Shown here: positions 17,182-33,725 of the stretch, piece by piece
How the letters are laid out: each line of letters opens with the position of its first letter
Numbering within the stretch: position 1 is the first letter of the stretch
From: a virus
Taxonomy: Duplodnaviria > Caudoviricetes
Virus record (IMG/VR): IMGVR_UViG_3300011335_000305
Location: 1 to 52,656 of that record
Direction: 5' to 3' (one strand)
Length of the DNA stretch: 52,656 bases
Notes under the pieces: generated by a model
The model's database searches: none
What the model saw: the letters and a program-made list of their open reading frames with translations, nothing else
What the model was told of the DNA's origin: nothing
Position numbers and translations under genes: made by a program

Positions 17182-17201
17182 AACTCTGCTAGGAGAATTA
17201 A

Positions 17202-17477
17202 ATGTTACCAACTGATACAGGAAATTTAGTCACCATCAAGAAGCATGGCAAGGGCAATACGAAATATTATGCCGTCTCTATCGCTTCACCAGTGATCAAT
17301 GAAGACAAGCAATACTTCTTTCGTGATTACACCAGTGCGTTTGCTTATCGCAAGGATGGAGTTACAAGCTTAACTTCGCAAGTAAAACACAACAGTCCTG
17401 AATTGCGCTTATCTGCGCCAATGTCAGAAGTCTCAAACAAGTCCGAATACAACGCTGATAATTTTAGGGGGATTTAA
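17202..17477 (+). CDS. Early hypothetical protein
   Basis: 91 aa with GCTAGGAG leader. Confidence 0.7.
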   Translation: MLPTDTGNLVTIKKHGKGNTKYYAVSIASPVINEDKQYFFRDYTSAFAYRKDGVTSLTSQVKHNSPELRLSAPMSEVSNKSEYNADNFRGI

Positions 17478-18020
17478 TATGAAATTCTACGAAATAGGAA
17501 TGTTCTTCATCTGTGCCGTATTTATTGCCTTAATGATCGCACTATGTCTCGCAGTAGAGGGGGGGAGATTTTATGTATAAATTAAGTGCAATATATTCTT
17601 GCGACTATGGTAACCAAAATGAGGGTGCATATCTTGAAATACTTGGCACATATAAAACAAAATTAGAGGCTGAAATAATTGCCGAAAATTTTGAGTTTGA
17701 CGAAATTGCGCCTAATTTTTTATCAACACAAATTGAGGAGATTTAATATATGATTGCCGTTATCGTCAATACCAACAGTCAGCGAATAGCTGAACATCAG
17801 TGCCAGTCTTGGGCGCAGTGCAGTGAATGGATTGATTCTTACCTTACCTACAACGATCTCAAAAGGGCGTGTTCTGATCATATTGCACATGGTCAACACA
17901 CTGTATGGGTGCGCTAGTGAAATGGATCAATGCGTTCTACGATCTGTTACTGGTTGCTAGTATCGTGATCGTTCTTTATATAATTTTGGGTTCAATTTAC
18001 CTTTACTTAGGAGGAAGTCT

Positions 18021-18206
18021 ATGAATTACGCAGAAGAACAAATGTTGGCAGTAATGCCTTACCCAGTGGATTCTATTCACTACAAAGATGTAATCATTCA
18101 AATGCGATCCGAATATGGTTACACCAAGTGGATGAAAATTACGCCTGAAGAATTTCGCAAGATCGAATTAATCTTAACTGGGGAATATCATGCTCAATAC
18201 GCCTAA
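18021..18206 (+). CDS. Early hypothetical protein
   Basis: 61 aa, AGGAGG SD. Confidence 0.7.
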   Translation: MNYAEEQMLAVMPYPVDSIHYKDVIIQMRSEYGYTKWMKITPEEFRKIELILTGEYHAQYA

Positions 18207-18381
18207 TCAGATAGAACACTTCCGTTTACTTACTTTACGCCAAATGCTCAAGCTTGAATTACTAGGCATGAAGCGTAGTGGGAGATCAGCTTACGCCATC
18301 ATCAAAAGTGAGTTAGGACTAAAGGGCAATAAGAAGTCCGTCTTTGATCAGCTATCGGATATGTTGGGCAAGTCAAACTGA
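18190..18381 (+). CDS. Early hypothetical protein
   Basis: 63 aa; LKLELLGMKRSGRSAYAIIK motif; stop codon lies inside the HH2 core. Confidence 0.75.
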   Translation: MLNTPNQIEHFRLLTLRQMLKLELLGMKRSGRSAYAIIKSELGLKGNKKSVFDQLSDMLGKSN

Positions 18382-18423
18382 AGAGTCTTCAATAGACGAA
18401 ACTGGTGCGAACCAGTCTTTGAC
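18372..18423 (+). ncRNA. Type I hammerhead ribozyme HH2
   Basis: Stem I GTCAAA/TTTGAC, CTGAAGA, stem II GTCT/AGAC, GAAA, stem III CTGGT-GCGA-ACCAG, GTC cleavage after 18417. Confidence 0.93.
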
Positions 18424-18442
18424 AAACTGCTAGGAGTTAAAA

Positions 18443-18787
18443 ATGGAAACACAATTAGATTTGAATAGCTTTACTGGGACTGAGAGTTATTGGAAGACTT
18501 GTTTGTTTGCACCGAAGCTAGTGCATACTGATGGCGTTCAATACTTTGCTGACCATGCAAATGCCTACTGGTTCTTAGATATCGTTGCTACCGAGTATTT
18601 TAACGGCTTGGCTGACGATTTCTTGAGTATCAAACTGGTGGTTCACAGTGGTCGAGCAAATATCACTGTTGAGGATGGTGATTGCAACATCATCAAAAGC
18701 CGAGAGATAGAGTTTACGGATTGCCCTGAGGGGATCTACAACTTCTTTTTGACCAACAATGTATTGATGTTGACTTCTGAATACTAA
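18443..18787 (+). CDS. DUF6876-like protein
   Basis: FTGTESYW...TDGVQY...AYWFLD...IEFTD...LMLTSEY signature. Confidence 0.75.
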   Translation: METQLDLNSFTGTESYWKTCLFAPKLVHTDGVQYFADHANAYWFLDIVATEYFNGLADDFLSIKLVVHSGRANITVEDGDCNIIKSREIEFTDCPEGIYNFFLTNNVLMLTSEY

Positions 18788-18796
18788 CAAAGGGAA

Positions 18797-18813
18797 AGGG
18801 GGAAACCCCTTTT
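18797..18813 (+). terminator. GNRA hairpin, possible weak terminator
   Basis: AAGGGG-GAAA-CCCCTT with a short T tract between genes. Confidence 0.4.
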
Positions 18814-18820
18814 AAAAATA

Positions 18821-19036
18821 ATGGACTTAGACGGCAAAAAAGGTTTGGCAAGGGACATTTCCCAGTATGGCTACCACGAGCATAAAGGTTATGTTTGGGA
18901 TGAATACGATGCCCAAGGCATTTTCTTAACAAGGGTTTGCGAGACTTGTGTAGAAGAGAAATTAGCAGTTTATCGTCCTGAGATTCTTTCAGGATATTCC
19001 CAAGCTGATGTAGACGAATCGATTGAGGAGAATTAA
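18821..19036 (+). CDS. Early hypothetical protein
   Basis: 71 aa; YDAQGIFLTRVCETC...YRPEIL motif. Confidence 0.65.
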   Translation: MDLDGKKGLARDISQYGYHEHKGYVWDEYDAQGIFLTRVCETCVEEKLAVYRPEILSGYSQADVDESIEEN

Positions 19037-19038
19037 TT

Positions 19039-19224
19039 ATGGGTAAATTTACACTGGAAATTAACACGGATAACGATGCATTTAGTGGCGAAGATCTGCA
19101 CATTGAATTGCTAAAAAAATTAACAGATGTTGGTTATCGAGTTAGCGTATTGCGTGAGTTAAATGGGATCATTGTTGATTCCAATGGCAATACTGTTGGC
19201 GTTCATCAATTTTTTGGAGAATAA
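19039..19224 (+). CDS. Early hypothetical protein
   Basis: 61 aa; INTDNDAF...DSNGNTVG motif; GAGGAG SD. Confidence 0.7.
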   Translation: MGKFTLEINTDNDAFSGEDLHIELLKKLTDVGYRVSVLRELNGIIVDSNGNTVGVHQFFGE

Positions 19225-19225
19225 C

Positions 19226-19486
19226 ATGGATATTAAATTTTTTGCAGATCCTGCACATGGATGGGGTGAAGTGCCGATTAGCCTGATTAAAGAATTGGGC
19301 ATAGCTGACCAAATAAGCCACTACTCTTATATGAAAGGTGATAACGCATACCTTGAGGAAGACTGTGATCTGTCAGTCCTTATGAACGCCTTAGAAGCGC
19401 AAGGCATTACTGCCAATTTTGTTGAAGTATGGACAAACAACGATAGTCCAGTGCGTAGGTATCAGAGTTTTAAATTATCAAACTGA
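19226..19486 (+). CDS. Early hypothetical protein
   Basis: Start MDIKFFADPAHGW after GGAG; YLEEDCD motif; stop codon inside the HH3 core. Confidence 0.75.
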   Translation: MDIKFFADPAHGWGEVPISLIKELGIADQISHYSYMKGDNAYLEEDCDLSVLMNALEAQGITANFVEVWTNNDSPVRRYQSFKLSN

Positions 19487-19527
19487 TGAGCCTGTAAGGG
19501 CGAAACTGGCGTGAGCCAGTCTTTGAT
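19477..19527 (+). ncRNA. Type I hammerhead ribozyme HH3
   Basis: Stem I ATCAAA/TTTGAT, CTGATGA, stem II GCCT-GTAA-GGGC, GAAA, stem III CTGGC-GTGA-GCCAG, GTC cleavage after 19521. Confidence 0.93.
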
Positions 19528-19549
19528 TAACTTGCTAGGAGAAATTATT

Positions 19550-20080
19550 ATGCCAAATTGGTGCTATAACAATTTAACGATTGATGGAACGACAAAGGGT
19601 GGAAAGATTCTTGCTGAAGCTTTTAGACCGAAATATCCGATGGATGATGGAACATTGGATGCAAATCCTTTCCAAGACTTGATGCCGATTCCTGAAGATT
19701 TACGCATTGTATCAGGGTGGTTTGGTGATGGGACTGACAAACAGAATGAAATGCAAAAGCTATACGAAGCCAATAAGGAAAAGTATGGTTTTGAGAATTG
19801 GTATCACTGGTGCATAGCAAATTGGGGAACGAAGTGGGATGCCACTGTTCAGGATTTTGATGACAACAATATCAATGATATTCGTGTTTACTTTGAGACG
19901 GCTTGGAGTCCACCATTGGACTTTTTGAGTTGGTTCTGCGAACAACATCCTGATACAGTTTTTACCCTTAACTACGATGAAGAGGGTTGTTCGTTTGAGG
20001 GTGAAACTACCCATAATCCTGAAGATGGTTTTGTTGACAATTGTTGGACACCTGAAATGGCCTTGGAGGATGCAGAATGA
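19550..20080 (+). CDS. DUF1281 / YubB (Api92-like) ferredoxin-fold protein
   Basis: MPNWCYN start, WYHWCIANWGTKWD and FETAWSPP motifs. Confidence 0.8.
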   Translation: MPNWCYNNLTIDGTTKGGKILAEAFRPKYPMDDGTLDANPFQDLMPIPEDLRIVSGWFGDGTDKQNEMQKLYEANKEKYGFENWYHWCIANWGTKWDATVQDFDDNNINDIRVYFETAWSPPLDFLSWFCEQHPDTVFTLNYDEEGCSFEGETTHNPEDGFVDNCWTPEMALEDAE

Positions 20081-20364
20081 ATATTTGCGAAGATGGCTAT
20101 TCAGGTAATAACGATCCGTTCTTTCAAGAAATATCAGATGATTGCGATGAAATTCAAATGATTCCCGATACTCTTGATGATGGTTCAGTGGTGGTTAATT
20201 TCGATGTTTACGACAAAGAAAATAACGAAGTAATCAAGACTGGTGGATATGTTCTCATTCGCAAGGAAGAGGATCTGAAAGATTTTTACATTTGTGTATT
20301 TAACAAAGATGGTGATCAAATGTCTCAAACCCGATTGCCGTTTGACTGGTTAAGTCTTGACTAG
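20077..20364 (+). CDS. Acidic early hypothetical protein
   Basis: 95 aa, coupled ATGA overlap. Confidence 0.65.
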   Translation: MNICEDGYSGNNDPFFQEISDDCDEIQMIPDTLDDGSVVVNFDVYDKENNEVIKTGGYVLIRKEEDLKDFYICVFNKDGDQMSQTRLPFDWLSLD

Positions 20365-20435
20365 TGCAGTAATCCTGATGCCCAGTTGGGCATTGGGATT
20401 GCCATTGGGGTGATCATAACTGCTAGGAGATTAGT

Positions 20436-20747
20436 ATGGATTTTCAAAGAGATTTAAAAGTTGGCGAGTATGTTTTGATGGGTTGTGGGACAGATAACAA
20501 CGGCAAAAGGGATCAAATTTCTGCTTTATGCTATTGGCGTAACAGTCCTGACAAAGCCAAAAACATATGCATGAGATTTGGGAAAGTAATAAAGGCGATG
20601 TGTATTACTTGTTAAGGGTTGAACGAGTTTGTATGTTCGGGCAGTTACCCAATGGTTATTGATCTTCCCAAGCCTGTTGAAAGGGTTAATTTGACACTGG
20701 AAAAAGCCGAAGGCGATGACTGGAATGTTTTCCAAGGGGATGAGTAA
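20436..20747 (+). pseudogene. Interrupted early gene
   Basis: Strong leader and ATG at 20436; one in-frame TAA at 20613-20615; the same frame resumes to a stop at 20747 that overlaps the next ATG. Confidence 0.5.
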
Positions 20748-20965
20748 TGGCGTTTGAAGTTCAGCACTATACCCTGTGTGACGGATGGATTAACTGTTGG
20801 TCAACAATTGTGGACGGCAAGGAAATGCCGTCTATTTATAACACATACATGGATGCATTGAATGCCCTGTCTGACTTCATATCGCAAGAGCATGAAGCGT
20901 ATAGAGAGGGCGCAATTGATTCTATGTATGATGCCAGTGAATTTCGAATAATGGAGATTATATGA
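20747..20965 (+). CDS. Early hypothetical protein
   Basis: 72 aa; EVQHYTLCDGWINCW motif. Confidence 0.7.
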   Translation: MAFEVQHYTLCDGWINCWSTIVDGKEMPSIYNTYMDALNALSDFISQEHEAYREGAIDSMYDASEFRIMEII

Positions 20966-21270
20966 GCATTAGAGAAAAGGTGATTTCAGCATTGGTTAAA
21001 AACGATTTAGAGGATTGGTTTTCCAAAGAAGATATGCATGACTACTTTTCGCTTTTATTGAAAAGTGGTTTTGTTGGGTATGAAAATCAAGAATCTATCG
21101 ATTTGATTCAAGAAATAAAAGATCGGTGCATAGTCAATACAAAGCCAAACGCAGATTGCAATACTTGTAATTCTGATGATCGTTATATTTGTATTGAGTG
21201 CGAACATAACCAAGTAATTGATTATTTTGAAAAAGAGGAAGTATGGTCATGGTTAAAGGAAAGTATATGA
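20962..21270 (+). CDS. Early hypothetical protein with CxxC pairs
   Basis: 102 aa; CNTC...CIEC. Confidence 0.65.
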   Translation: MSIREKVISALVKNDLEDWFSKEDMHDYFSLLLKSGFVGYENQESIDLIQEIKDRCIVNTKPNADCNTCNSDDRYICIECEHNQVIDYFEKEEVWSWLKESI

Positions 21271-21596
21271 AGATGAATAAGCCAAGGAAAACTTACTTTA
21301 CGACTGATGGGTTTAAACCACCAATTTGGTTTTCGGGATTGTCTTATGGTGAAAGATGGAACGGATGGGCAATTCCCTACTTCACCAAGGAAGTGGCATT
21401 GAAAATTGTGGCGCAGATGCCAAGTAATTTACGCTATTCCGAAGATATTGATGCATTTGTTTACAACGATCTTGAAGCCACTGGCGATGAAAGTTGCAAC
21501 GAATATTTTGGCGCAGATTACATTGATGGCGAGAAATACTATTCCATTGGTGGATGCAGTTGGTGTTGGGATGAAGTTGTTGAGGAGGAAGTATGA
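21243..21596 (+). CDS. Early hypothetical protein
   Basis: RWNGWAIPYF and YSIGGCSWCW motifs; true start may be slightly downstream. Confidence 0.7.
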   Translation: MVMVKGKYMKMNKPRKTYFTTDGFKPPIWFSGLSYGERWNGWAIPYFTKEVALKIVAQMPSNLRYSEDIDAFVYNDLEATGDESCNEYFGADYIDGEKYYSIGGCSWCWDEVVEEEV

Positions 21597-21792
21597 ACCA
21601 AGACCTAGCAATTGCTTTTAACAGGGCTAGATATTTTAAGAAAAAAATAATTATTGAATATCGAGAACACAACAATAGTATTTATTAAAGTCAAATTAAT
21701 TATCGTGAGGCTGATTCAATGGAAGATTTTAAGGAACGAATGGCAAAATCAGGCACTTTAATTTCTTACGCAAAAATATACACGGAGGACAT

Positions 21793-21990
21793 ATGAAAGC
21801 ATTTCAATGGATTGACAAAAGCAATACTCGTAGGCGTAAACCACCTTACCTACAAGGATACGAAGATGGTTATATGCAATTAGAAATGCGTGATGGCGAA
21901 CTTTATGATGTTGATAAAGATAAAATTATGTATGGCGAAGGCTATGACGATGGCGCTTGGGGTAAACCTAATCAATTGGAGAAAGAATGA
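21793..21990 (+). CDS. Early hypothetical protein
   Basis: 65 aa, GGAGG SD, GYEDG/GYDDG repeats. Confidence 0.65.
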   Translation: MKAFQWIDKSNTRRRKPPYLQGYEDGYMQLEMRDGELYDVDKDKIMYGEGYDDGAWGKPNQLEKE

Positions 21991-22169
21991 AAGAATACAC
22001 GAAACAAAGGAAATCGAAGCGAGAACGAGAAGCTACTGCTAATTCGTTGTTGAGTAGGGTTTTATCTAGCGATACATTTGCACAAAAGATCGAAGCGATA
22101 CGAGAAACTAATCCGTATTTTTATTTATTAACACCAAAGAAGGAGAGTCATGATGAAAGTAATGATTGA
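21987..22169 (+). CDS. Early hypothetical protein
   Basis: 60 aa coupled ORF. Confidence 0.55.
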   Translation: MKEYTKQRKSKREREATANSLLSRVLSSDTFAQKIEAIRETNPYFYLLTPKKESHDESND

Positions 22170-22416
22170 AATAAATTTACCTGATGGTCAGGCAATACCA
22201 ACGGAAAGTGATATTAAGCGTTTGACGAGTCCTGATTGGATTGCATCATGGTGGCATATTGACGATGTAAAAAGCTTAAACAAAAAATTAACCAAGCAAG
22301 AATGTAGGGATGTTCTTGACATAGTTAATCATCGACATGATGCCAATGTTGGTATTAATTGGGATTTTATTCAGTATTACATTGATCAAGTTATTGAGGA
22401 AAGGGAAGAGGCATGA
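22150..22416 (+). CDS. Early hypothetical protein
   Basis: WHIDDV...HDANVGINWD motif; AAGGAG SD. Confidence 0.7.
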   Translation: MMKVMIEINLPDGQAIPTESDIKRLTSPDWIASWWHIDDVKSLNKKLTKQECRDVLDIVNHRHDANVGINWDFIQYYIDQVIEEREEA

Positions 22417-22598
22417 TTACGGAAAAGGAAGTAAAGAAAGGTGGCTACACTGTGTTGCCCGAAGGTGGGTGGATTCGGATTGATCCTGAAACAATGCCAC
22501 ACGATTGGGAAAACATTTGTTCAGGATTTGGTATTGATCCTGATTGCAAAAGCGCAATATTGTGCGTAGTCGGTGTTAAAGAAGAGTGGGAGAAATAA
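22413..22598 (+). CDS. Early hypothetical protein
   Basis: 61 aa coupled ORF. Confidence 0.6.
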   Translation: MITEKEVKKGGYTVLPEGGWIRIDPETMPHDWENICSGFGIDPDCKSAILCVVGVKEEWEK

Positions 22599-23042: not shown

Positions 23043-23313
23043 AGAATGCCAAGGCAGAGTGCCTGTTTTCGTTGGTGGGGATTCCCCTTTTCAACTAGTT
23101 GATTTCCCTACTAGGAAACAGTTTGACGAACTTTACAGAACGAGTAACGAAGAGTTTAGGGATAGGTATTGGGATGTTCTTAAAATGCGAACAAAGGGGT
23201 ATAGTTTGACCGATGTAGGCAAAAAATACCTTTTGACTCGTGAAAGGATCAGGCAGATTGAAGCTAAGTTTTTAAGGAAAGTAGCAACTTCTTTAAGGAC
23301 TGAGACGCTTTGA
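23032..23313 (+). CDS. Sigma70 region-4-like HTH protein
   Basis: GYSLTDVGKKYLLTRERIRQIEAKFLRK. Confidence 0.8.
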   Translation: MNLKECQGRVPVFVGGDSPFQLVDFPTRKQFDELYRTSNEEFRDRYWDVLKMRTKGYSLTDVGKKYLLTRERIRQIEAKFLRKVATSLRTETL

Positions 23314-25569: not shown

Positions 25570-26391
25570 TTACTTCTTTTTTTGCAGAGATTTGATTTGA
25601 CGAATCAATTCAGCATTTCTTGACTGATACATGTCTCTGCTATCTCTTAAAGTTTTGTTTTCCATTTCTAAGATCTTGATCGTCTCTCGCAACTCTTTTA
25701 CTGTGTCCTGTATGTCCTCTATTTCGATGTCTGTGGCATCTTCCCATCGATTAGAGGCGATAATGTCTTTCAGTTTGGCATTCTCATCATCCAAGTTCTC
25801 TATCGTTGTAGACAGTTCTTTTAACTGGTCTTCAGTTTTGTCATAAACTGGCTTTTCTTCAGCAACATTTGTCTTTAATGATTGCGTGTTTACTTTTATT
25901 TCTTTTTTGTTTTTATCAATATATATTTTTTCAGTAGTAAATTCCTTTAACTTTTTAGCTTCAATCATTGCCAACTTGACACGACCAACAGTCATTGCAG
26001 ATACTTTTATTTTTTTGGCAATCATGGTGTTGGTGTAATTTTTATACACAGGATGATTGAACATAATTTCAATGGCATGACGATTATCAGCATGGCTTGG
26101 TCTTAAGCCGTTGTCTCCGTTTGCCGTCAATGAAAAGTCTAATGCATCATCTTTAGTGCCTTGACGAAGATCAACATCTACAGAGACAGTGCCATTTTTC
26201 TTATTGGCAAAGTATCTGTGAAAGCCTGATGAAAGCCAGTAATCAGAGCCGTCATGGAAGACAACCATTAAAGGAAATTGATGCCCTTCCTTCATGAGTT
26301 CAGCGTATTCGTCTACGGCTTGTGTATTTAATTCTTTACGAGTTTGTGTGCCACCGTCTGTACGAATGGCTAATAAATTCAAAGTTTTCAT
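25570..26391 (-). CDS. ParB/Srx-domain protein with HTH and coiled coil
   Basis: TQTR...VDEYAE...YWLSSGFHRY ParB-like motif; NTMIAKKIKVSAMTVGRV HTH. Confidence 0.75.
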   Translation of the reverse strand: MKTLNLLAIRTDGGTQTRKELNTQAVDEYAELMKEGHQFPLMVVFHDGSDYWLSSGFHRYFANKKNGTVSVDVDLRQGTKDDALDFSLTANGDNGLRPSHADNRHAIEIMFNHPVYKNYTNTMIAKKIKVSAMTVGRVKLAMIEAKKLKEFTTEKIYIDKNKKEIKVNTQSLKTNVAEEKPVYDKTEDQLKELSTTIENLDDENAKLKDIIASNRWEDATDIEIEDIQDTVKELRETIKILEMENKTLRDSRDMYQSRNAELIRQIKSLQKKK

Positions 26392-26417
26392 TTTCTCTCC
26401 TAGCAGTTGGAAATTCC

Positions 26418-26446
26418 AGTTTATTAAAAATTACAGATTAAAGCAA
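26418..26446 (-). promoter_or_regulatory. Sigma70-like promoter for the ParB-helicase-primase unit
   Basis: TTGCTT-N17-TAAACT, followed within about 10 nt by AACTGCTAGGAG. Confidence 0.55.
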
Positions 26447-26863
26447 GACTATTTCAACAAATTTGTCTTTGGGTACATCATAAAAATATTCTCCGTCAGC
26501 TATCCTCCTGTTGGGTATCTCCATCAACGGACTTGCCAGTATCTCTTTAACATTGATATACCAAGCTTTTGACAGACTTTTGTTGATGACAAAGTAAACC
26601 GTTGGCATATCGTTGTCGAATAACTTCTTCTTCCGTTGGGGAATGTGTATAGTCCTAAATGGGCAATCTTCCCAGTCCCGCATTTCAACCTCGGCATAAC
26701 CGATTGGTACAGAAAACTCATTCTCAATTAATAAATCTACCTTGTATTTGTCATATGGCAGAGCCGTATAGTCCCATCTGTTCTTGAGATAAGTTGTCAA
26801 CGCTTCCCTTGCCGGTGGATCGCATTGATCATGGATGTATTGGTCGAATGGTTTAATTTTCAT
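26438..26863 (-). CDS. Putative PD-(D/E)xK nuclease-fold protein
   Basis: YKVDLL...YAEVE motif; 141 aa. Confidence 0.5.
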   Translation of the reverse strand: MKIKPFDQYIHDQCDPPAREALTTYLKNRWDYTALPYDKYKVDLLIENEFSVPIGYAEVEMRDWEDCPFRTIHIPQRKKKLFDNDMPTVYFVINKSLSKAWYINVKEILASPLMEIPNRRIADGEYFYDVPKDKFVEIVLL

Positions 26864-27225
26864 AAGTAAAAAGACAATAGTTTCCCCAAGGGTGATAAGC
26901 CCTCATCCATTACGAAGTAACTATCGCAACTAATGCTCCCTAAGGTAATGTTCAATCGTCATAGTAGTTGTCTCACCTCTGTCCACTATAACTTGTGTGA
27001 TACCCATTTAAGTCCACGAGGCACGCTATCGGGTGAAGGATCAGCCTATGTTCTATTCCACGCAACCCATGTAGGTTCTTGATATCGTTTGGAGTACGTC
27101 AGTACTAGGAATGACACACAAAATGGCATAAATTTATACACATGAAACTAAAGTATATAAAAATATTCAATTTGTTTTCAGAGAATTGTTTCAGTCTCCG
27201 GTGTCATTCCTAGCAGTTGAGCCTA

Positions 27226-27255
27226 CAGATTAAACTATTTTTAAATATTTTGCAA
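27226..27255 (-). promoter_or_regulatory. Sigma70-like promoter
   Basis: TTGCAA-N17-TAATCT; spacer shares 14 bp with the sRNA promoter spacer. Confidence 0.5.
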
Positions 27256-27260
27256 CAGAT

Positions 27261-27299
27261 AAAAAGAAAGAACCCCAAATTTTTTAGATATGGGGTTCT
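27261..27299 (-). terminator. Rho-independent terminator of the sRNA
   Basis: AGAACCCCA/TGGGGTTCT stem followed by TTCTTTTT on the minus strand. Confidence 0.75.
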
Positions 27300-27387
27300 G
27301 GGTGTGGATAAGCAGGCATCCATGCCATCATTTGATTAACCCTGCTAGGAGTAGACACCAGATTGATGGCAGTACATGGGTTTGTAC
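27261..27387 (-). ncRNA. Putative trans-acting antisense sRNA
   Basis: Own promoter and terminator; stem TGCCATCA/TGATGGCA encloses a loop with CTCCTAGCAGGGTTAATCAAA, complementary to early-gene leaders. Confidence 0.7.
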
Positions 27388-27393
27388 CTACTA

Positions 27394-27423
27394 AGTATAG
27401 TGTATTTTTAAATATTGTGTCAA
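27394..27423 (-). promoter_or_regulatory. Sigma70-like promoter of the sRNA
   Basis: TTGACA-N18-TATACT. Confidence 0.75.
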
Positions 27424-27710
27424 TATATTGTACCTATATGGTTATTTTCAAACAACCAGCCAATTGTTTTTCGATGGCATTCATCCCATAACTCGATTCT
27501 TTCTTGCTTGGAAAGCTTGTTACCTTGATCTAATTCCATATGGCAAGAGTAACAAAGTGCGCCAATTCTGTAGTCATGGGCTTTGATTCCACGGCCTTTG
27601 CCGTCCCGTAGCTGGTTAGAATGCGCAGCCACCACCGTTCCATCGTTTCTGCCACAGTGTTGACAGGGTGATTGACGGACAATTTCTAGTAATTTCTTAT
27701 TTCGATACAT
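27420..27710 (-). CDS. DUF1364/DUF968-like His-Cys nuclease-like protein
   Basis: PCQHCG...TVVAAHSN...GKGRGIKAHD...LCYSCH. Confidence 0.7.
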   Translation of the reverse strand: MYRNKKLLEIVRQSPCQHCGRNDGTVVAAHSNQLRDGKGRGIKAHDYRIGALCYSCHMELDQGNKLSKQERIELWDECHRKTIGWLFENNHIGTIY

Positions 27711-28057: not shown

Positions 28058-28066
28058 AATAACCCC

Positions 28067-28249: not shown

Positions 28250-28258
28250 TTAATTTTC

Positions 28259-28471: not shown

Positions 28472-28877
28472 TGTATCTCCTTAAATATCGTCACAACACC
28501 TAGTTTCACAATCTTCGCAACAATTACACAGACTCTCTTCGTCTCCATGTATTTCTTCGGCAAAAGGGCAAGTATGCATATCTTGTGCCGGTTTCTTTTC
28601 GCAACAGCCACATAACTTTTTCATTTCTCCTCCTTATTTATGGCAATACGGACACTTGACCAGTATGGTTAGTATCTTTGACTTACAATGTACACAAATG
28701 TAAGGTGTCATTTCTCACTCGCTTTTTTTAGTAATGTTCTGAATTCATCCAATCCAACACCAACCATTTTTATTATTTCCTCATCGGTTAATTTACTTTG
28801 TTGTTTAAACATTGTGCAAATTAATCTCCACTCTTTTTGTGTAGGCAAAATGTCAGGATTCATTACAATTTCTTTAC

Positions 28878-29153
28878 TCATCCCTCACTCGCTTTCTTTA
28901 GTATTGCTCTTGCAAAATCAATTATCATATCTGTACTCAATTTAATTCCAAGCGCATCTTTATAAACTTGCATTATTTCCTCATCAGTTAACTCACGCAT
29001 TGGTTGCTCTTTAACTATGGGTTGCGCTTTAACTAAGTTATGCAACGCTTGTATTTCGGCTGACGTATACAAAGGGTTTAGTTTAAGTATCGAATCAGGT
29101 GGTGACTCTTTAAACAATATACCGCCATCTGATATGTATGCACTTGGTTTCAT
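28878..29153 (-). CDS. Hypothetical protein
   Basis: 91 aa; LTDEEI...FARAILKKASE motif common in small phage genes. Confidence 0.65.
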   Translation of the reverse strand: MKPSAYISDGGILFKESPPDSILKLNPLYTSAEIQALHNLVKAQPIVKEQPMRELTDEEIMQVYKDALGIKLSTDMIIDFARAILKKASEG

Positions 29154-29368
29154 TTCTTACTCCAATAAAATAGTTTAACGACTAACCTAAACCATAACGG
29201 TACATTAGGTTTATTAGGTTTATCTTCCTCAACCGATTTAGTCCCCCCATACAAACCTCTTGGGTCATGCCAACCAAATGTGTATCTCTCTTTAAATTCA
29301 GGCAATGGAAAACATTTACGACATCCTCCTAAATAAATACCATGTCTACAATTGCCGTAATGACTCAT
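29150..29368 (-). CDS. Small protein carrying a major-capsid C-terminal motif
   Basis: 72 aa, ATGA-coupled on both sides; ERYTFGWHDPRGLYG. Confidence 0.65.
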   Translation of the reverse strand: MSHYGNCRHGIYLGGCRKCFPLPEFKERYTFGWHDPRGLYGGTKSVEEDKPNKPNVPLWFRLVVKLFYWSKK

Positions 29369-29628
29369 TTTTCCCTCGCTTTCATCATCGCATCTGCAAA
29401 TTTATACGCAACATTCGCATACCCATCATACGGAAACTCATCATACGGAAACCCATCCATATCATCAATATACCAACAACTATCATCGCCTCTACTACCC
29501 TTTAACGGTAGCCCCATATGCTTCATGGCTTGAGCCGCAAAGTAATCCCTTAAGTCCATACCGCTATTCTCTTTAACACCTACTACGTTGTTACCATAAA
29601 TCGCTTCGCTACTTGGAAATGCTTTCAT
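29365..29628 (-). CDS. Conserved phage hypothetical protein
   Basis: GMDLRDYFAAQAM...AYKFADAMMKAR motif. Confidence 0.75.
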   Translation of the reverse strand: MKAFPSSEAIYGNNVVGVKENSGMDLRDYFAAQAMKHMGLPLKGSRGDDSCWYIDDMDGFPYDEFPYDGYANVAYKFADAMMKAREK

Positions 29629-29822
29629 CTGTCGCTCCTCATTGTTCGTTTAGCTTCTTCACACAACTTTGCGTAATCCTTGGGTACATCGGGATGCCAT
29701 CCACCCAACAGTAGTTCGCAGTTTAGTTTATATACTTCTTCCTTACGACTCAACTCGGTTAGGTAAATGATAAGCCCGCAGAACACAATCCACATACATA
29801 CAATAATTGGTATTGATTTCAT
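29625..29822 (-). CDS. Small membrane protein
   Basis: N-terminal TM helix; NC...GWHPDVP...C. Confidence 0.6.
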   Translation of the reverse strand: MKSIPIIVCMWIVFCGLIIYLTELSRKEEVYKLNCELLLGGWHPDVPKDYAKLCEEAKRTMRSDR

Positions 29823-30418
29823 TAGTAACCCTCAGATAATTTTATCTTAGCTTCTTTTAAACTTTTAACAGCACTTGCAACTCTTTTTGCCCAGCACTGA
29901 ACTTTTTCCTTGTGTTTTTCTTCGTCACGCTCATTCCAACCAAACTCTGTATCTCTTTCTGGTGGCACTTCTTTTGTTTTCTCCCATAATGTTGGACTAA
30001 TACCCAACAAATCATCAAGTACAGATGTACGAGAAGGGTGACGCAGTTTTCGAAAAGCTTTGGCTTCAATCTGACGGACACGTTCTTTATGTATTGAATA
30101 CATACTGGCAATTTGTTCAAGACTGTAATCAGTAACAGTGTCAATCCCAAAACGAAATTGAAGAATTTTTGATTCTCTAGGCGTTAAGCTATCTATCATT
30201 CGTCTTACTGTTTGTTTAAATTGAATCTCTTCCAAGATATCTTCAGGGCCAAAAAATTCAGTTAACTGTTCAATTTCTTCCGGATTAATTGTTTCATAGC
30301 TAGACTCTTCTTCAACAAAATAAGTTGGAGTAAAGTCCCCACTTAATGGCAATAGCCCAAGAGAGCCAATAACTTCACGCTCTCTGTAATGCATGGCAGT
30401 TTTATATTTTTTTCTCAT
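29822..30418 (-). CDS. RpoD region-4-like protein
   Basis: LTPRESKILQFRFGI...DYSLEQI...ERVRQIEAKAFRKLRHPSR is close to the sigma70 C-terminus. Confidence 0.85.
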   Translation of the reverse strand: MRKKYKTAMHYREREVIGSLGLLPLSGDFTPTYFVEEESSYETINPEEIEQLTEFFGPEDILEEIQFKQTVRRMIDSLTPRESKILQFRFGIDTVTDYSLEQIASMYSIHKERVRQIEAKAFRKLRHPSRTSVLDDLLGISPTLWEKTKEVPPERDTEFGWNERDEEKHKEKVQCWAKRVASAVKSLKEAKIKLSEGY

Positions 30419-30583
30419 TTACTTTGTCATACTTGCGTTTTTTGATGGCAGCAATACCAGCTTCAGGGCTTTTGTTTCGGGCAAGTAACATTTCATCAGC
30501 AAACCTATAACAATCTTCTGCGTTTGCCCCTGTTATCGCTTTAAACATAGCAAAACAATCTCTTAGATCTTGTTCGTTCATTA

Positions 30584-30862
30584 TTAATTCCTTAAAGATT
30601 GAATTTGTTCTGACAAAAGTAATCCCAAGTCTTTGCCTTTGATGGCAATCATTTGGGCTTCTTTGCAGTCATAAATTATTTTGCTGGCATCTTCAAGACC
30701 TTTGTTATAACCAGTCTTAAATTGATCAGTGCCGTCTACCAACATCATAATTGCATCACGAATCAGGGCAGAAGCTTTCCTGTTTTTGGCAGCTTCCTTC
30801 AGTTTTTTATGATGCGCCTCTGGCAAATAGACAGAGTACGGTATTAATTTTTTTGAGTCCAT
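30584..30862 (-). CDS. Ribbon-helix-helix-like protein
   Basis: PYSVYLP...LKEAAK...SALIRDAI. Confidence 0.55.
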   Translation of the reverse strand: MDSKKLIPYSVYLPEAHHKKLKEAAKNRKASALIRDAIMMLVDGTDQFKTGYNKGLEDASKIIYDCKEAQMIAIKGKDLGLLLSEQIQSLRN

Positions 30863-31278
30863 TCTTGGTACTCCCTAAAAAGTCTATCTAATAGTATTTG
30901 AGCTTCTCTGTTGGTTTTTAAATCTGACCTAGAAGGAATGTTTAGATACGATCTAAGCCATTCTGTAGCCTCTTCCATGTCTTCAATAAAGATACGATCA
31001 TCAGCGTGTAAATACTTCCAAAAGTTTGGATCCCTAGAAAGAATACCGGCTAGTCGAATTGCTCGATCACCGGAAAACTCTTCCGCTTTATCCATTGGCT
31101 GTTCATTATCATTAAGCCTGACAAGTACACATTGGTACCTAGCCCCAACAAAATCCCTGAGCAACTCTTCAGGAATTTCATCAGGATGTAGTGACAATGT
31201 TAAAACATAGCCAGTCTTATCTTGTTTGAGAGCAACCTTTACTGCTTCGAATTGCAAGGTTTTCAATGTTACTCCCAA
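30844..31278 (-). CDS. Conserved hypothetical protein
   Basis: 144 aa ORF in the recombination module. Confidence 0.65.
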   Translation of the reverse strand: MGVTLKTLQFEAVKVALKQDKTGYVLTLSLHPDEIPEELLRDFVGARYQCVLVRLNDNEQPMDKAEEFSGDRAIRLAGILSRDPNFWKYLHADDRIFIEDMEEATEWLRSYLNIPSRSDLKTNREAQILLDRLFREYQEWTQKN

Positions 31279-31538
31279 GGGTTAGATTCGGTTTTCTTCA
31301 CATAAGGCTGACCAATGCTCATGGAAAGATACTTGCCCACCTTTTCTGACTCTTTACTCCATGCACTGACAGATACTTTAATCGTAGATTCTTTTGACTT
31401 ATCAATTAAATCCAGTAGAAAGGTTTTGTCAAGAACTACCTCACCCCTTAAATCAGGTTGTGTTTCAGTCTTTTTAAAACTGTTCTTGAATAAACTGCCT
31501 GTGTTGGGTTTTGCTACATACGCTTCATCGTAAGCCAT
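31269..31538 (-). CDS. Putative single-stranded DNA-binding protein
   Basis: GSLFKN...QPDLRG...SAWSK...KYLSMS with an aromatic C-terminal tip; follows ERF. Confidence 0.6.
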   Translation of the reverse strand: MAYDEAYVAKPNTGSLFKNSFKKTETQPDLRGEVVLDKTFLLDLIDKSKESTIKVSVSAWSKESEKVGKYLSMSIGQPYVKKTESNPWE

Positions 31539-31540
31539 TA

Positions 31541-32245
31541 TTATTCCTTTGCAAAATTAGCTTTGGTTTGAGTAAATTTGCCCATCATTTCCTTAAAGAA
31601 GGATGGGTCAGTTGCTTTGACCGTATCAAATAGAACTTTGTTCTTTTTAAATATTGTCATTACATCGGCATCACTAGTACATACGTCTAGTAATAAATGA
31701 GAAGCTGTTTTAACCATGTCTAGCCATTCAGTTGCATCACCTTCAGGCACTGGCGAGACTCTAATCTGAAACTCTCCCCTATCCCCTTCAATTAGCTTGT
31801 TTGTCTCAACTGGCTGAATCTCTTTAACTTTAGGCAATACTGTTGGTTTAATTGGCGCAACTGGCTCAATATTCCCAGTTGTAGAATCTAGTGCATCATG
31901 TTCAGAGATTGCAAGGGCAGATACATAAAGATACCTACGCTGATACGTTTCTACCGCCCCAATATTCTGTACCACATGGCATCCTTTTAACTGGGCAGAT
32001 CCCATTGGCGATGTAAACACCACAGATGAACCATCTTCTACATCATAGACAGTCATTGTTGCTACATCTTCTGTAAAAGAAATAATATCGCACAGACCTA
32101 CATGCTCAAAGATAGACTGAACATAAGGCAAAAAATCACCCAGTTCAAAGTATTGATACCCTGCAAACTTGTTATGCCCTGACTTCTTTAACTCTAGCTT
32201 TCTCAGCATATTCCTTGCTTTGATTAATTTTGCATAAACTTTCAT
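31541..32245 (-). CDS. erf: ERF-family single-strand annealing protein
   Basis: KKSGHNKFAGYQYFELGDF and QNIGAVETYQRRYLY motifs. Confidence 0.85.
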   Translation of the reverse strand: MKVYAKLIKARNMLRKLELKKSGHNKFAGYQYFELGDFLPYVQSIFEHVGLCDIISFTEDVATMTVYDVEDGSSVVFTSPMGSAQLKGCHVVQNIGAVETYQRRYLYVSALAISEHDALDSTTGNIEPVAPIKPTVLPKVKEIQPVETNKLIEGDRGEFQIRVSPVPEGDATEWLDMVKTASHLLLDVCTSDADVMTIFKKNKVLFDTVKATDPSFFKEMMGKFTQTKANFAKE

Positions 32246-32417
32246 CCTAAACTCCTCAAATATTTATCTGCCAAACGATTGGCAATAATAAAAATTATGT
32301 CATGCCCCTCATGCTCAGATATATCGTCTTCCAAAATATCTGATGGTATTAATTCGCTCATGCTTGAATTACTTGCTAACGCCAACATAAATTCGTACAC
32401 CATTTCTTGCCTTGTTT

Positions 32418-32621
32418 TCATACTTTCTCCGTTAACATTGATTTATATAAAGATTCTATTTCTGCTTTTGCATCTACCAAACAATCCAACTGAATAACCC
32501 TATCCATTGTTAAAAATTCTTTAAAATAGATTGCGCTTGCCTCTCCAACGCATGGATCATAATTAATTTCAATAATTTTCATACTTTCTCCTTTAAATAG
32601 GTTTGATATTGATTGCACCAA
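32418..32621 (-). CDS. Hypothetical protein
   Basis: Short ORF, likely start MKIIEI after AAGGAG. Confidence 0.5.
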   Translation of the reverse strand: MVQSISNLFKGESMKIIEINYDPCVGEASAIYFKEFLTMDRVIQLDCLVDAKAEIESLYKSMLTEKV

Positions 32622-33469
32622 GTGCTAACTTGGCAATATGATTCACAACGAGTTCTTTCTCCTGATCTTATTTGGATATAGAACTTTTCTTTCGGTTTAC
32701 TACTTTGCAACTCTTTTAACGCTAAATCAGCTTCGTGTTCAGTCGGCATAACATACTTGGCTCTAACATTACCTTCTTTCATTACAGCCCATACAGCTGG
32801 CTTTTCCCACATCTCGTCAGGTGTACAATCAGGTAAGTCTCCATCGGTTTCTAAGGCAAAATCACATTCTGAATGCAGTGAAATACGAGCCCTGACAAAC
32901 TCTTCTCTTTCTGCCATCGACCATAAAACAACAGGCACTTCCTTAATTGGCGTTTCAGGATAATTTTCCTTTGTGCCAACTTCCCTTTGTTTCCAATCAC
33001 GCAAAATTGCTACTATGCCAAGATTAGTAACAGGAACTTTCTTTACTTTTTCTACTAACCAAGCATAGATATTTAATTGATATTCCCATTCAATCTTTTC
33101 ATTCATTACAGACCAAACACTGGTTGTTTTGTAATCTCTAATAGCAATCCCGTCATTGCCAATAAATTGTAAGTCTATTGCGCCACTGATATTCCAACCA
33201 TCTATCTCAGAATGTAGGCGCTGTTCGACCACATTATGTTGATCTTTACCGTGTTCTAAAAGGTTATGCATGGCAGAGCCAAGTAATGACCAAATCATGT
33301 CTGATACATCCTGCGTTATTTCATCATCAAACTTCCTTGTCAACGCCACAATCTTTGGACTGTTTAGCAACTGGGTTGCAGACAGATGCGCCTTACCTTT
33401 GTTGTAAGTAGGGCGCTCCAATACATTGACAAATGTTTGGGGGATATTAAATTTGTTAGTTAGTTTCAT
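32579..33469 (-). CDS. PD-(D/E)xK (RecB/Cas4-like) exonuclease
   Basis: LSATQL, GSAMHNLLE, ISGAIDL, DYKTT, QLNIYA and C-terminal RCESYC...WC. Confidence 0.85.
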   Translation of the reverse strand: MKLTNKFNIPQTFVNVLERPTYNKGKAHLSATQLLNSPKIVALTRKFDDEITQDVSDMIWSLLGSAMHNLLEHGKDQHNVVEQRLHSEIDGWNISGAIDLQFIGNDGIAIRDYKTTSVWSVMNEKIEWEYQLNIYAWLVEKVKKVPVTNLGIVAILRDWKQREVGTKENYPETPIKEVPVVLWSMAEREEFVRARISLHSECDFALETDGDLPDCTPDEMWEKPAVWAVMKEGNVRAKYVMPTEHEADLALKELQSSKPKEKFYIQIRSGERTRCESYCQVSTWCNQYQTYLKEKV

Positions 33470-33473
33470 GTTC

Positions 33474-33695
33474 TTACCTAACAATCAATTTAGAAAACAA
33501 TACAACTAACACAGTTAATATAAGAAACTTAACCATGTATTTAGCAATAATGCGATCTTTAGAGCTTTTAGGTTTTGCTAACAAAGCTTCCTGTAGAAAC
33601 AGCATATCTTTGTCATCAATTTGCATTGTGGTACCATTCTCACCATGCCGTGAGCCAATCTTTAAACCAGTTTTGGTTGTATAAGGTGTGTTCAT
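33474..33695 (-). CDS. Small membrane-anchored hypothetical protein
   Basis: PYTTKTGLKIG motif and C-terminal TM helix; TGCTAGGA leader. Confidence 0.65.
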   Translation of the reverse strand: MNTPYTTKTGLKIGSRHGENGTTMQIDDKDMLFLQEALLAKPKSSKDRIIAKYMVKFLILTVLVVLFSKLIVR

Positions 33696-33725
33696 TTTTG
33701 ATTTCCTAGCAGTTAATCAGACTAT

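Follow-up and report, generated by a model that had tools for sequence, protein, structure and literature searches.

A shared ribosome-binding leader follows predicted hammerhead ribozymes and other candidate 5′-end elements in the early region of an uncultured tailed phage

An early-region leader motif

The window analysed here, a stretch of 52,656 nucleotides, comes from an uncultured tailed phage of ~53 kb or more, whose terminase is ~55% identical to those of the pelagiphages HTVC023P and HTVC027P. Structural genes occupy 1–16.7 kb of the window, an ERF recombinase and a PD-(D/E)XK nuclease are encoded at 31541–33484, and a product of 4217 residues is a polyvalent protein. The word TGCTAGGA occurs in eight places:

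17187–17195, plus strand: motif copy 1 (TGCTAGGAG), ATG at 17202
18428–18436, plus strand: motif copy 2, ATG at 18443, DUF6876 protein
19533–19541, plus strand: motif copy 3, ATG at 19550, DUF1281_C / Api92-like domain protein
20421–20429, plus strand: motif copy 4, ATG at 20436, ORF of 59 residues
27343–27351, plus strand: motif copy 5, small ORF 27363–27491 next
26397–26405, minus strand: motif copy 6, ATG at 26391, ParB-like protein of 273 residues
27207–27215, minus strand: motif copy 7 (TGCTAGGAA), heading an ORF-free conserved RNA region and no gene
33703–33711, minus strand: motif copy 8 (TGCTAGGAA), ATG at 33695, first gene of the leftward replication/recombination operon

The seven copies of the preliminary description all exist (starting at 17187, 18428, 19533 and 20421 on the plus strand; 26398–26405, 27208–27215 and 33704–33711 on the minus strand), but its list was incomplete, since the copy at 27343–27350 (plus strand) had been overlooked. 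The nearest start codon to this overlooked copy (motif copy 5) is 11–14 nt away; in relatives, an ATG stands there at normal spacing.

Eight copies compare with a mean of 1.55 in shuffled sequences, of which none of 100 reached eight (maximum 5), and the 11-mer AACTGCTAGGA occurs five times against none for its reversed control. All eight copies fall in the 8.4% of the window that lies outside ORFs (P about 2e-9, with this share computed from a crude ORF set) and all are confined to 17–34 kb: there are no copies in 34–52.6 kb, none in the polyvalent-protein region and, as first noticed, none before the structural genes in 1–16.7 kb. Chance or a compositional artefact, for which only the short length of the word could speak, is refuted by these counts and by conservation in at least 50 related contigs, and we give it practically no credence. 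The motif is a non-random leader common to selected early and replication-module cistrons.

Across the window and related loci, TGCTAGGA forms the core of a 12-letter leader, AAC-UGCUAGGAG, followed by 5–8 nt and AUG. In 114 of 147 distinct contexts, an ORF no shorter than 35 codons begins after the motif; the spacing from the 9-mer is 5–8 nt in 106 of these 114 (mode 6), and the start codon is ATG in 94. Six of the eight window copies have canonical Shine–Dalgarno spacing, and AGGAG is a purine-rich core of the kind expected 5–9 nt before a start codon, judged against the usual anti-Shine–Dalgarno sequence, which may differ from that of the host. Neither UGCU nor AAC pairs with the usual 16S tail, CCUCCUU(UCU/A). 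Both are conserved beyond the need of pairing with that tail (possibly not the host's), AAC carrying 0.9–1.3 bits in contexts for which the 8-mer itself was the search key; a plain ribosome site would not explain the extension.

Conservation beyond the Shine–Dalgarno core is what would be expected of a regulon operator, that is, of a sequence AAC-UGCUAGGAG recognised by a phage or host RNA-binding protein or by an antisense RNA. Such a factor would switch all marked early messages together, at the level of translation or of stability, for example in early shut-off. The preliminary description had proposed a regulon, and the window motif is indeed restricted to early and replication genes (8/8 within 17–34 kb). 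Family searches of the genes headed by the motif turned up no RNA-binding regulator, nor any other candidate for a factor acting in trans. Such a dedicated factor may exist, and the operator reading is our second, less probable explanation. The early genes of phage T4 offer a precedent, in that RegA and RegB act on early ribosome sites and place early genes under joint control: there, too, an early gene class is marked by a particular ribosome-site sequence, although the marking sequence in the present phage is longer and different, and no candidate factor was found among the motif-led genes.

One copy might be taken as a further sign of an operator, as it heads a conserved non-coding RNA and pairs within it:

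26864–27206, minus strand: ORF-free conserved RNA region downstream of motif copy 7

The 5′ CUAGGAAUGACAC of this RNA pairs with a complementary copy ~75 nt downstream (27105–27117), and the helix between the motif and this internal stretch covaries in two relatives (L058 and L057). Motif copy 7 heads an ORF-free RNA and belongs to a covarying helix, so that it is no ribosome site there. Against an operator, the internal complement follows its own 5′ partner and not the common motif.

Two further observations weigh against the operator. The leader of an orthologous promoter-proximal gene varies between TGCT, TACT and TAAT, with G-to-A among the changes, and the motif apparently works embedded in coding sequence too. 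In six relatives, the same 9-mer lies within the C-terminal coding sequence of an upstream ORF, where it would act as an internal, coupled ribosome site; neither a ribozyme nor a hairpin nor a promoter accompanies it there. Judged by its placement, the cassette is portable. These six relatives also contradict the claim that the motif always lies near an RNA 5′ end; within the window, that claim stands, as every copy adjoins an element predicted to define such an end.

Hammerheads, a long hairpin and promoter-like sites

Upstream of the four plus-strand copies at 17187, 18428, 19533 and 20421 lie three type I hammerheads and one long-hairpin element:

17129–17181, plus strand: type I hammerhead 1, predicted cut after 17175; the upstream ORF stops at 17128
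18372–18423, plus strand: type I hammerhead 2, predicted cut after 18417
19477–19527, plus strand: type I hammerhead 3, predicted cut after 19521
20361–20417, plus strand: conserved two-state hairpin element (element 2), before motif copy 4

All three hammerheads have the CUGANGA...GAAA...UC| core, three helices and, at the cut, GUC, which fits the NUH cleavage triplet. Hammerhead 1 carries one extra U after A9; in hammerhead 2 the UGA of the CUGAAGA core is the stop codon of the upstream ORF, and in hammerhead 3 the core UGA likewise. Because the predicted cuts fall after 17175, 18417 and 19521, the motif begins 11, 10 and 11 nt into the respective 3′ products, and this anatomy agrees with the original statement that three copies follow hammerhead cuts. 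Compared with RF00163 (clan CL00010), the catalytic core and the three helices with an open stem I are present, and the scores stay below the gathering cut-off: Rfam at gathering score matched none of the window hammerheads, whereas in E-value mode it gave sub-threshold hits to 18372–18423 (29.3 bits against a cut-off of 34) and near 19462–19509 (28.0 against 48.5), with hammerhead 1 unreported even then.

Across 48 hammerhead sequences the core columns are invariant, 14 of 16 pairs vary on both sides, and the covariation score is 0.785 against 0.161 in shuffles. Paired cells make up 98.1% of the total, compared with 31–43% when partners are slid, a share inflated by pre-selection of the sets with a scanner that demands pairing. 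A model built from these sequences finds exactly three strong matches in the window (61–69 bits; next best 11.4), these three having been among its seeds. The window hammerheads probably cleave themselves in vivo.

The fourth slot, before motif copy 4, was described earlier as a long hairpin, and the element at 20361–20417 is indeed one, and conserved. Its predicted stem of 15 bp plus 6 bp with a 2-nt bulge is mutually exclusive with a 7-bp hairpin, GAUUNNN/NNNAAUC, which covaries too. Ten copies have minimum free energies of −23.8 to −32.9 kcal/mol (z −2.6 to −5.3); the element has no Rfam family. In relatives its slot is held by hammerheads, and element 2 is probably another processing or 5′-end element.

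The three minus-strand copies had been said to follow sigma70-like promoters. Sites found by eye are as follows:

26418–26446, minus strand: weak promoter-like TTGCTT-17-TAAACT, ending 12 nt before motif copy 6
27227–27255, minus strand: weak promoter-like TTGCAA-17-TAATCT, ending 11 nt before motif copy 7
33726–33754, minus strand: weak promoter-like TTGACA-17-CAAACT, ending 14 nt before motif copy 8

The weak −10-like hexamers 11–14 nt upstream thus stand, but a consensus scan for two hexamers with at least 4/6 matches each, 16–18 nt apart and with T demanded at −10 position 6, finds no site upstream of these copies; by hand count the −10-like hexamers match at 3–4/6 positions and the −35-like ones at 3–6/6. 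The window holds fewer sigma-70-like sites than shuffled sequence (41 against 53.5). The −10-like hexamer before the ParB-like gene recurs in relatives, as TA(A/T)ACT-GGAATTTCCAAC, and one relative (L028) has a layout similar to that before motif copy 8. Transcription may start at these weak promoters before the minus-strand copies, and leaders there would be roughly 20–25 nt long, similar to the 21–30 nt between hammerhead cut and start codon. The association with promoter-proximal leaders fails at one gene:

16820–16848, plus strand: best sigma-70-like early promoter of the scan, TTGACA-17-GAAAAT (16820–16894 with the leader of gene 16901)

Gene 16901 has TAAT-AGGAG (16886–16894) where the orthologous position would give TGCT-AGGAG, and relatives show TGCT and TACT variants there.

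The motif could itself be a DNA promoter element, with TGnTAGGAG as an extended −10-like sequence and leaderless messages starting at the ATG 6–7 nt downstream; the TG-n-TA layout and the modal 6 nt to ATG fit a −10/start geometry. The sigma-70 −10 element requires T at position 6, however, which the hexamer TAGGAG does not have. Moreover, AGGAG at equal spacing is the ribosome site of most other window genes, copies right after hammerheads within an operon need no promoter, and the window yielded no phage RNA polymerase, only a sigma-like protein of 198 residues. We consider this reading very improbable.

Layout and exchange among relatives

Downstream of 72 of 75 distinct hammerheads lies a start codon, 21–30 nt after the cut in 70 of these 72 (median 25.5 nt). 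For 71 of them all, an open frame that lies upstream and spans 40 codons or more ends no more than 12 nt before the core or at the core UGA, and for 33 of the 75 it stops exactly at that UGA.

It had been suggested that the ribozymes exist to give internal genes the same exposed 5′ target as promoter-proximal genes. The predicted unpaired probability of the ribosome site is 0.525 before and 0.523 after cleavage, accessibility being higher when cleaved in 36 of 71 cases (p 0.92), and simple unmasking is therefore not the benefit. Among relatives found through their terminase and not through the motif, other leaders follow 20 of 23 distinct hammerheads; hence the ribozymes do not exist for this 8-mer in particular. 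Sister lineages have the same layout with different leaders. On the contigs of other lineages, the post-hammerhead leaders (AAGGGG, AAGGAAA) differ from the AGGAG of most genes, a comparison made with crude ORF sets. Such lineage-own leaders hint at a special site class and not a generic optimum, and a flavour peculiar to each lineage's post-hammerhead leader, unlike its other genes, also counts in favour of an operator.

The pattern of a hammerhead 3′ end followed by the motif occurs at no fewer than 80 viral loci, and in 50 of the 80 listed, a scanner-defined hammerhead precedes the motif; at least 50 related contigs are represented. None of 64 pattern matches in cellular genomes has hammerhead and motif. 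Five related records carry 5–7 motif copies each in the same layout, against 0–2 for controls.

Upstream elements are interchangeable across these relatives. The element before one and the same downstream gene can be a plain hammerhead, a hammerhead whose stem III is elaborated, or element 2; near-identical upstream elements lead into different genes, and the breakpoint then falls at the motif or the ATG. By k-mer clustering, which lumps hammerheads through their common core, 12 upstream clusters each combine with more than one downstream cluster, and 10 downstream clusters with more than one upstream cluster. The motif is mosaic with respect to terminase identity, being present in contigs at 74–76% and missing from some at 78–81%.

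These many-to-many combinations with breakpoints at the motif, the mosaic distribution and the ERF recombinase and nuclease encoded by the phage would also suit a block of 12–22 nt (stem I end, AAC and motif) that persists as short homology for cassette exchange between co-infecting relatives. Exchange products stay viable only at gene boundaries, however, so that breakpoints are expected there anyway; the AGGAG core and the fixed spacing to the start codon favour a function at the RNA level, and the lumping of hammerheads in the clustering further reduces the weight of the combinations. We regard persistence of the block as an exchange site as improbable.

A standard start for early messages

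The observation first reported is real and is partly confirmed, and its interpretation finds support in part. The explanation that we favour, with somewhat better than even confidence, is a standard, lineage-specific cassette for ribosome binding that has been joined to 5′-end-forming elements. TGCTAGGA(G) would be the core of a translation-initiation cassette consisting of AAC-UGCUAGGAG, an A/U-rich spacer of 5–8 nt and AUG, in which AGGAG would serve as the Shine–Dalgarno sequence and the AAC and UGCU extension would be a lineage-specific flavour. The cassette would head the first cistron of each separately handled message of the early and replication modules. Along the rightward early operon, RNA processing would produce the new messages: in three places a type I hammerhead fits exactly between upstream stop codon and leader, and cleavage would leave the ribozyme as a structured 3′ end of the upstream message and give the downstream message a 5′-hydroxyl end and a leader of 25–28 nt. 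Element 2 would fill the fourth slot as a processing or 5′-end element, and the leftward modules would carry the same cassette behind weak promoters. The sequence identity of the cassette would stem from common descent, exchange at junctions and selection for an efficient ribosome site.

In phage T7, RNase III sites between early genes cut a long polycistronic transcript into individual messages, and an RNase III processing hairpin comprises about two turns of double-stranded RNA. The present early transcript is likewise predicted to be cut at structured intergenic elements, and element 2, an interrupted hairpin of 21 bp, resembles a T7 site; whereas T7 relies on a host enzyme, three of the four sites here are predicted self-cleaving RNAs. 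A second parallel is the insulator RiboJ, which was engineered from a satellite RNA ribozyme and has an added hairpin that exposes the ribosome site. Unlike RiboJ, the phage leaders have no exposing hairpin, and cleavage leaves their predicted accessibility unchanged. As in RiboJ-type insulators, a hammerhead lies just upstream of a standard ribosome site, where it would trim off variable RNA and define the 5′ end. A synthetic ribozyme insulator is described as raising the expression of insulated genes (PMC6206723).

The closest natural counterparts are the clustered hammerheads of prophages (Perreault et al. 2011, PMC3088659), which flank single genes, including an anti-restriction gene, and cleave both in vitro and in E. 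coli. As portrayed in that paper's account of the clusters, one operon has several type I hammerheads, set around individual small genes of anti-restriction or plasmid-leading-region type (in the present phage, DUF6876 and DUF1281_C), and their proposed role is to turn long phage transcripts into gene-length messages. Relative to that account, the present phage differs in a fixed downstream leader common to promoter-proximal genes, a constant cut-to-start distance, an upstream stop codon inside the catalytic core in 33 of 75 cases, and a non-hammerhead element that can fill the same slot. HHphage of haloviruses HF1 and HF2 also precedes an early gene: only 13 nt separate it from the start codon, and a 5′ end has been mapped no more than 3 nt from its cut site; it is a single ribozyme of an archaeal virus, and the part of the paper devoted to it reports no common leader (PMC3088659).

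The arrangement would uncouple and standardise the expression of individual early genes, much as synthetic ribozyme insulators do. As read from sequence, it suggests that phage hammerheads may divide operons into individual messages, each with a short start of standard form.

Placement and spacing of the leader motif

The IMG/VR record is linear, 52,656 bp long and of an estimated completeness of 83%, and its large terminase is 55–58% identical to those of phage 023Pt_psg01, phage DSL-LC04 and the pelagiphages HTVC027P and HTVC023P. No tRNA genes were found in the window. The gene blocks and proteins that frame the motif are listed below.

Gene blocks and selected proteins of the window
From 16.7 kb leftward: structural genes (small and large terminase, portal and others)
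16.9–23.3 kb, rightward: block of small early genes
23.3–33.7 kb, leftward: replication/recombination block (Toprim primase-like, helicase, ParB-like, sigma-like, ERF and PD-(D/E)XK nuclease)
29822–30418, minus: 198 aa protein matching the PHROG 'RNA polymerase sigma factor' (E 2e-18)
34091–46744, minus: polyvalent protein of 4217 aa with ART-PolyVal (ADP-ribosyltransferase), Strawberry-notch-type helicase and LPD38 domains

Two of the small genes encode DUF6876 and DUF1281_C, domains that we take to be associated with plasmid leading regions, and late transcription may be driven by the 198 aa sigma-like protein (29822–30418, minus).

The ribosome-binding leader core TGCTAGGA occurs eight times in the window, against a mean of 1.55 and a maximum of 5 in shuffled sequence, with none of 100 shuffles reaching eight. 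All seven copies named in the preliminary description are real, and an eighth, not listed there, lies at 27343–27350 (plus). Every copy lies outside open reading frames (ORFs): all eight fall within the 8.4% of the window that is free of ORF cover (P about 2e-9), as defined with a deliberately generous ORF set, and all are confined to 17–34 kb. The longer form of the word is AAC-TGCTAGGAG; the 11-mer is found five times in the window, and its reversed control not at all.

An ATG follows 5–8 nt after the motif in six of the eight copies. The nearest start codon downstream of copy 27343 is 11–14 nt away, relatives having a normally spaced ATG at that place, and copy 27215 (minus) is followed by approximately 340 nt devoid of ORFs. 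Across the window and related loci, 114 of 147 distinct contexts are leader-type, with ATG as the start codon in 94 and a spacing of 5–8 nt between the 9-mer and the start in 106. A variant of the motif, CTACTAGGAA, is present at 23107–23116 (plus), directly 3′ of the terminator-like hairpin that ends the rightward operon; it has no normally spaced ATG downstream and is kept in the related locus L053. Full pairing of the motif with 16S rRNA was set aside as unlikely, judged solely against the usual 16S tail sequence, and its reading as an extended −10 element or leaderless message was rejected. Most likely, the motif is the standard ribosome-binding cassette of this lineage, used wherever an early or replication message begins.

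Hammerhead ribozymes and the layout of their surroundings

Three motif copies in the rightward operon are preceded by type I hammerheads, the upstream gene ending within the ribozyme core in two cases.

Hammerheads and associated stop codons in the window
17129–17181, plus: type I hammerhead 1, predicted cut after 17175, leader 26 nt
18372–18423, plus: type I hammerhead 2, predicted cut after 18417, leader 25 nt
19477–19527, plus: type I hammerhead 3, predicted cut after 19521, leader 28 nt
18379–18381 and 19484–19486: core UGA at which the upstream gene ends

The core (CUGANGA plus GAAA) and the cleavage triplet GUC are present in all three, and the predicted cuts place the motif 10–11 nt into the downstream product. 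Rfam returned no match at the gathering score for these sites and sub-threshold matches for only two of them. Across an alignment of 48 sequences, the three window copies and 45 from related contigs, the core does not vary. Of 16 helix pairs, 14 have changed on both sides; covariation scores 0.785 as compared with 0.161 in shuffles, and 98% of cells are paired, a share that drops to 31–43% when partners are slid, for sequences that had been preselected by a scanner demanding pairing. A covariance model built from this alignment scores the three window sites at 61–69 bits and the rest of the window at no more than 11.4 bits; the three sites being seeds of the model, its informative part is the lack of further copies. 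The hammerheads proposed in the preliminary description thus stand, on the strength of core, GUC triplet and covarying stems and at scores below the Rfam threshold, and add new examples to a ribozyme class already known.

The surroundings of these ribozymes follow a strict pattern. Among 75 distinct hammerheads drawn from the window, from pattern matches and from terminase-ascertained relatives, 72 precede a purine-rich site and its start codon, and the distance from cut to start is 21–30 nt in 70 of these 72 (median 25.5). On the other flank, 71 of 75 have an open frame of 40 codons or more that ends within the last 12 nt ahead of the core or in the core; for 33 of 75, two of the three window copies among them, the UGA of CUGANGA is its stop. 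Because the upstream stop lies at or in the core and the cut-to-start distance is short, the whole intergenic region consists of ribozyme plus leader. Where the core UGA is the stop, terminating ribosomes would be expected to sit on the ribozyme; in CUGAUGA-type cores a second in-frame UGA comes next.

That cleavage unmasks the ribosome site is unsupported: the predicted unpaired probability is 0.525 in the precursor and 0.523 after the cut, and the cleaved form has the greater value in 36 of 71 cases (p 0.92). Some hammerheads carry a large stem III insertion with two GAGUCCGCAAA copies around a small hairpin (related loci L008, at about 2380–2465, L013, L057, L074 and L083), and a distinct insertion of 30 nt occurs in L018, L038, L077 and L082. 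The repeated GAGUCCGCAAA in a long stem was considered as a separate 'element 3' and dismissed, since these are hammerheads, up to 120 nt in length, whose stem III is elaborated.

We infer that message beginnings in the rightward operon would be made by self-cleavage. The hammerhead would complete its folding just ahead of transcription of the ribosome site and then cut, giving a downstream message with a 5′-hydroxyl end and a leader of about 25 nt, while the ribozyme body would stay as the 3′ end of the upstream message and cap it with its fold. The presumed benefit is that the cuts would uncouple stability and translation of neighboring small genes. This layout would be a natural counterpart of synthetic ribozyme insulators and is like that of the hammerhead-flanked ardA of Agrobacterium (PMC3088659). 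The purpose of hammerhead ribozymes in bacteria and phages is still called undefined in a review (PMC6765202) and in the report on prophage hammerheads (PMC3088659), and a literature search at the level of titles and abstract openings found no published description of a shared leader after phage hammerheads.

A substitute hairpin and exchange among relatives

The long hairpin reported in the preliminary description upstream of copy 20421 is present and conserved.

20361–20417, plus: element 2

This element occupies the slot held by hammerheads in relatives. Twenty distinct instances came from a motif-started search and 20, in an overlapping set, from a pattern wholly inside the element; with the latter, the motif lies within 25 nt downstream in 20 of 20 distinct contexts. 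Folds of ten copies range from −23.8 to −32.9 kcal/mol (z-scores −2.6 to −5.3). The long hairpin, a 15 bp stem with an extension of about 6 bp that pairs NAGUG with CAUUN and shows G-C, U-G and A-U alternatives, rests on single-sequence folds and on our own reading of that covariation. RNAalifold on a MAFFT alignment recovered only a competing 7 bp hairpin, GAUUNNN/NNNAAUC, the long stem being missed because MAFFT misaligned it. Since the 7 bp hairpin uses the central strand of the long stem and covaries too, element 2 looks two-state in these models. Small-stretch E-value scans against Rfam gave no credible family for it (best matches, microRNA and snoRNA models at 10–21 bits). It also occurs in L006, L014, L028, L107, L112 and other related loci, replaces hammerheads before the same genes, and is a candidate processing site or new ribozyme.

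The pattern 'GTCTTTGA, 3–8 nt, TGCTAGGAG' retrieved at least 80 viral loci. In 50 of the 80 viral matches listed, the scanner identifies a hammerhead with the motif after it; among the others are matches in unrelated contigs that are due to chance or to coding sequence. Cellular genomes (596 Gb) gave 64 matches in mixed taxa with a hammerhead core upstream in none; these are read as chance, and none is taken as a host. A blastn search of 50,697 phage records with hammerhead 2 plus its leader had no match at E up to 1, and 34 kb of DSL-LC04, a terminase relative, contained a single stray copy of the motif and nothing resembling a hammerhead core. Five related records carry 5–7 motif copies each (controls, 0–2) in a window-like layout, with 3–5 on one strand clustered within a few kb and 2–3 on the other.

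Among 23 distinct hammerheads in relatives found via the terminase rather than the motif, only three are followed by TGCTAGGA; the remainder precede leaders such as CAACUACUAAGGAAA, UUUUAAGGGG and UAACUAAUUGGAGGU, and most other genes of those contigs have AGGAG-type sites, as judged with crude ORF sets. As the post-ribozyme leader differs from the sites of other genes, it forms a class of its own within each lineage, and by these comparisons the TGCT flavor is lineage-specific. Terminase identity does not predict presence of the motif, as expected of mosaic early regions.

What stands ahead of the gene starting MGLDMYF... varies with the contig: element 2, a plain hammerhead or one whose stem III is long and elaborated. 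Conversely, near-identical upstream elements in L008, L009 and L042 lead into three different genes, divergence beginning at the spacer or the ATG. Under k-mer clustering of flanks, a crude procedure that lumps hammerheads and splits orthologues, 12 upstream clusters join at least two downstream clusters and 10 do the reverse. L015 shows a direct repeat of about 70 nt at about 2680–2780 that starts from the motif (motif, gene start, motif, same gene start), either a motif-bounded duplication or an assembly artefact.

Motif copies beyond ribozymes and the regulon reading

The preliminary description had taken the leader to lie always near an RNA 5′ end, a generality that the relatives do not support. 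In L033, L038, L044, L047, L064 and L067 the exact 9-mer lies within the last codons (Leu-Leu-Gly-Glu) of an upstream frame of 81–108 codons that extends over the start of the next gene; neither a ribozyme nor a hairpin or promoter was found in front of it in these six relatives. Promoters had also been proposed before the three minus-strand copies; a consensus scan found none there, promoter-like sites being rarer in the region than in shuffles, and what survives is weak hexamers picked by eye that end 11–14 nt upstream of these copies. The −10-like hexamer 5′ of the ParB-like gene was found again in relatives. The orthologous promoter-proximal leader reads ACCACC-TGCT-AGGAG or ACCACC-TACT-AGGAG in relatives and ACCACC-TAAT-AGGAG in the window, so that TGCT is missing ahead of the window gene that follows the best sigma-70-like promoter. 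The early promoter region of L018, L044, L047, L067 and L082 has TTGACA promoters followed, about 45 nt before the motif, by the perfect palindrome TGACAAT-GAA-ATTGTCA, a likely repressor operator. Together, the coding-embedded 9-mers, the TAAT leader and the unchanged accessibility count against a 5′-end-specific target.

Copy 27215 (minus) counts in turn against a plain ribosome site, since it heads an ORF-free region.

26864–27215, minus: ORF-free region of about 340 nt
27105–27117, plus, and 27201–27213, minus: arms of the 13-nt inverted repeat CTAGGAATGACAC
27181–27152, minus: sigma-70-like site CTGAAA-18-TATACT

About 230 nt of this region, which has covarying stems and is followed downstream by a 141 aa ORF and the ParB-like gene, are conserved at 72–99% identity in L053, L058, L077 and L057. 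The repeat contains most of the motif: CUAGGA and seven more bases pair with the complementary 13-mer about 75 nt downstream (27105–27117), and in L058 and L057 both arms are changed yet still complementary. This intramolecular arm is the sole complementary partner of the motif identified here. The sigma-70-like site lies between the arms, and a shorter transcript could therefore bear the complementary arm alone. On the plus strand, 27105–27117 reads as a TACT-type motif variant. Small-stretch E-value scans of 26840–27420 found no credible Rfam family (best, microRNA and snoRNA models at 10–21 bits). In L033, the slot syntenic to this region holds a Betaproteobacteria-1 RNA of Rfam (3371–3489, plus; 100.3 bits, cut-off 49.4), a possible hint at the host group of that phage.

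These data leave the observation as a whole largely intact; of its interpretation, the architecture is supported in part and the regulon is not. A more elaborate joint reading would make hammerheads and the previously undescribed element 2 interchangeable 5′-end generators feeding a common 12-nt leader, with element 2 either as a self-cleaving RNA of a new kind or as a site for RNase III that refolds into a protective 5′ hairpin once cut, the leader as the handle of a dedicated protein or antisense-RNA regulator of an early anti-defence-type gene set, and upstream translation ending at the core UGA as a gate on cleavage; taken whole, we regard it as improbable. A standard ribosome-binding cassette remains the reading that we prefer.

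What is new is the combination of fixed layout, shared leader and substitute hairpin element, the ribozyme class itself being known. This phage family offers dozens of natural hammerheads in one strict layout (stop codon in or at the ribozyme, cut, leader of about 25 nt, start codon), with a leader common to promoter-proximal genes and a non-hammerhead element that can stand in for the ribozyme. One or two structured RNAs absent from Rfam are indicated as well, and 'processing of polycistronic RNA' becomes a specific proposal on where 5′ ends lie, how long messages last and what leader swaps do.
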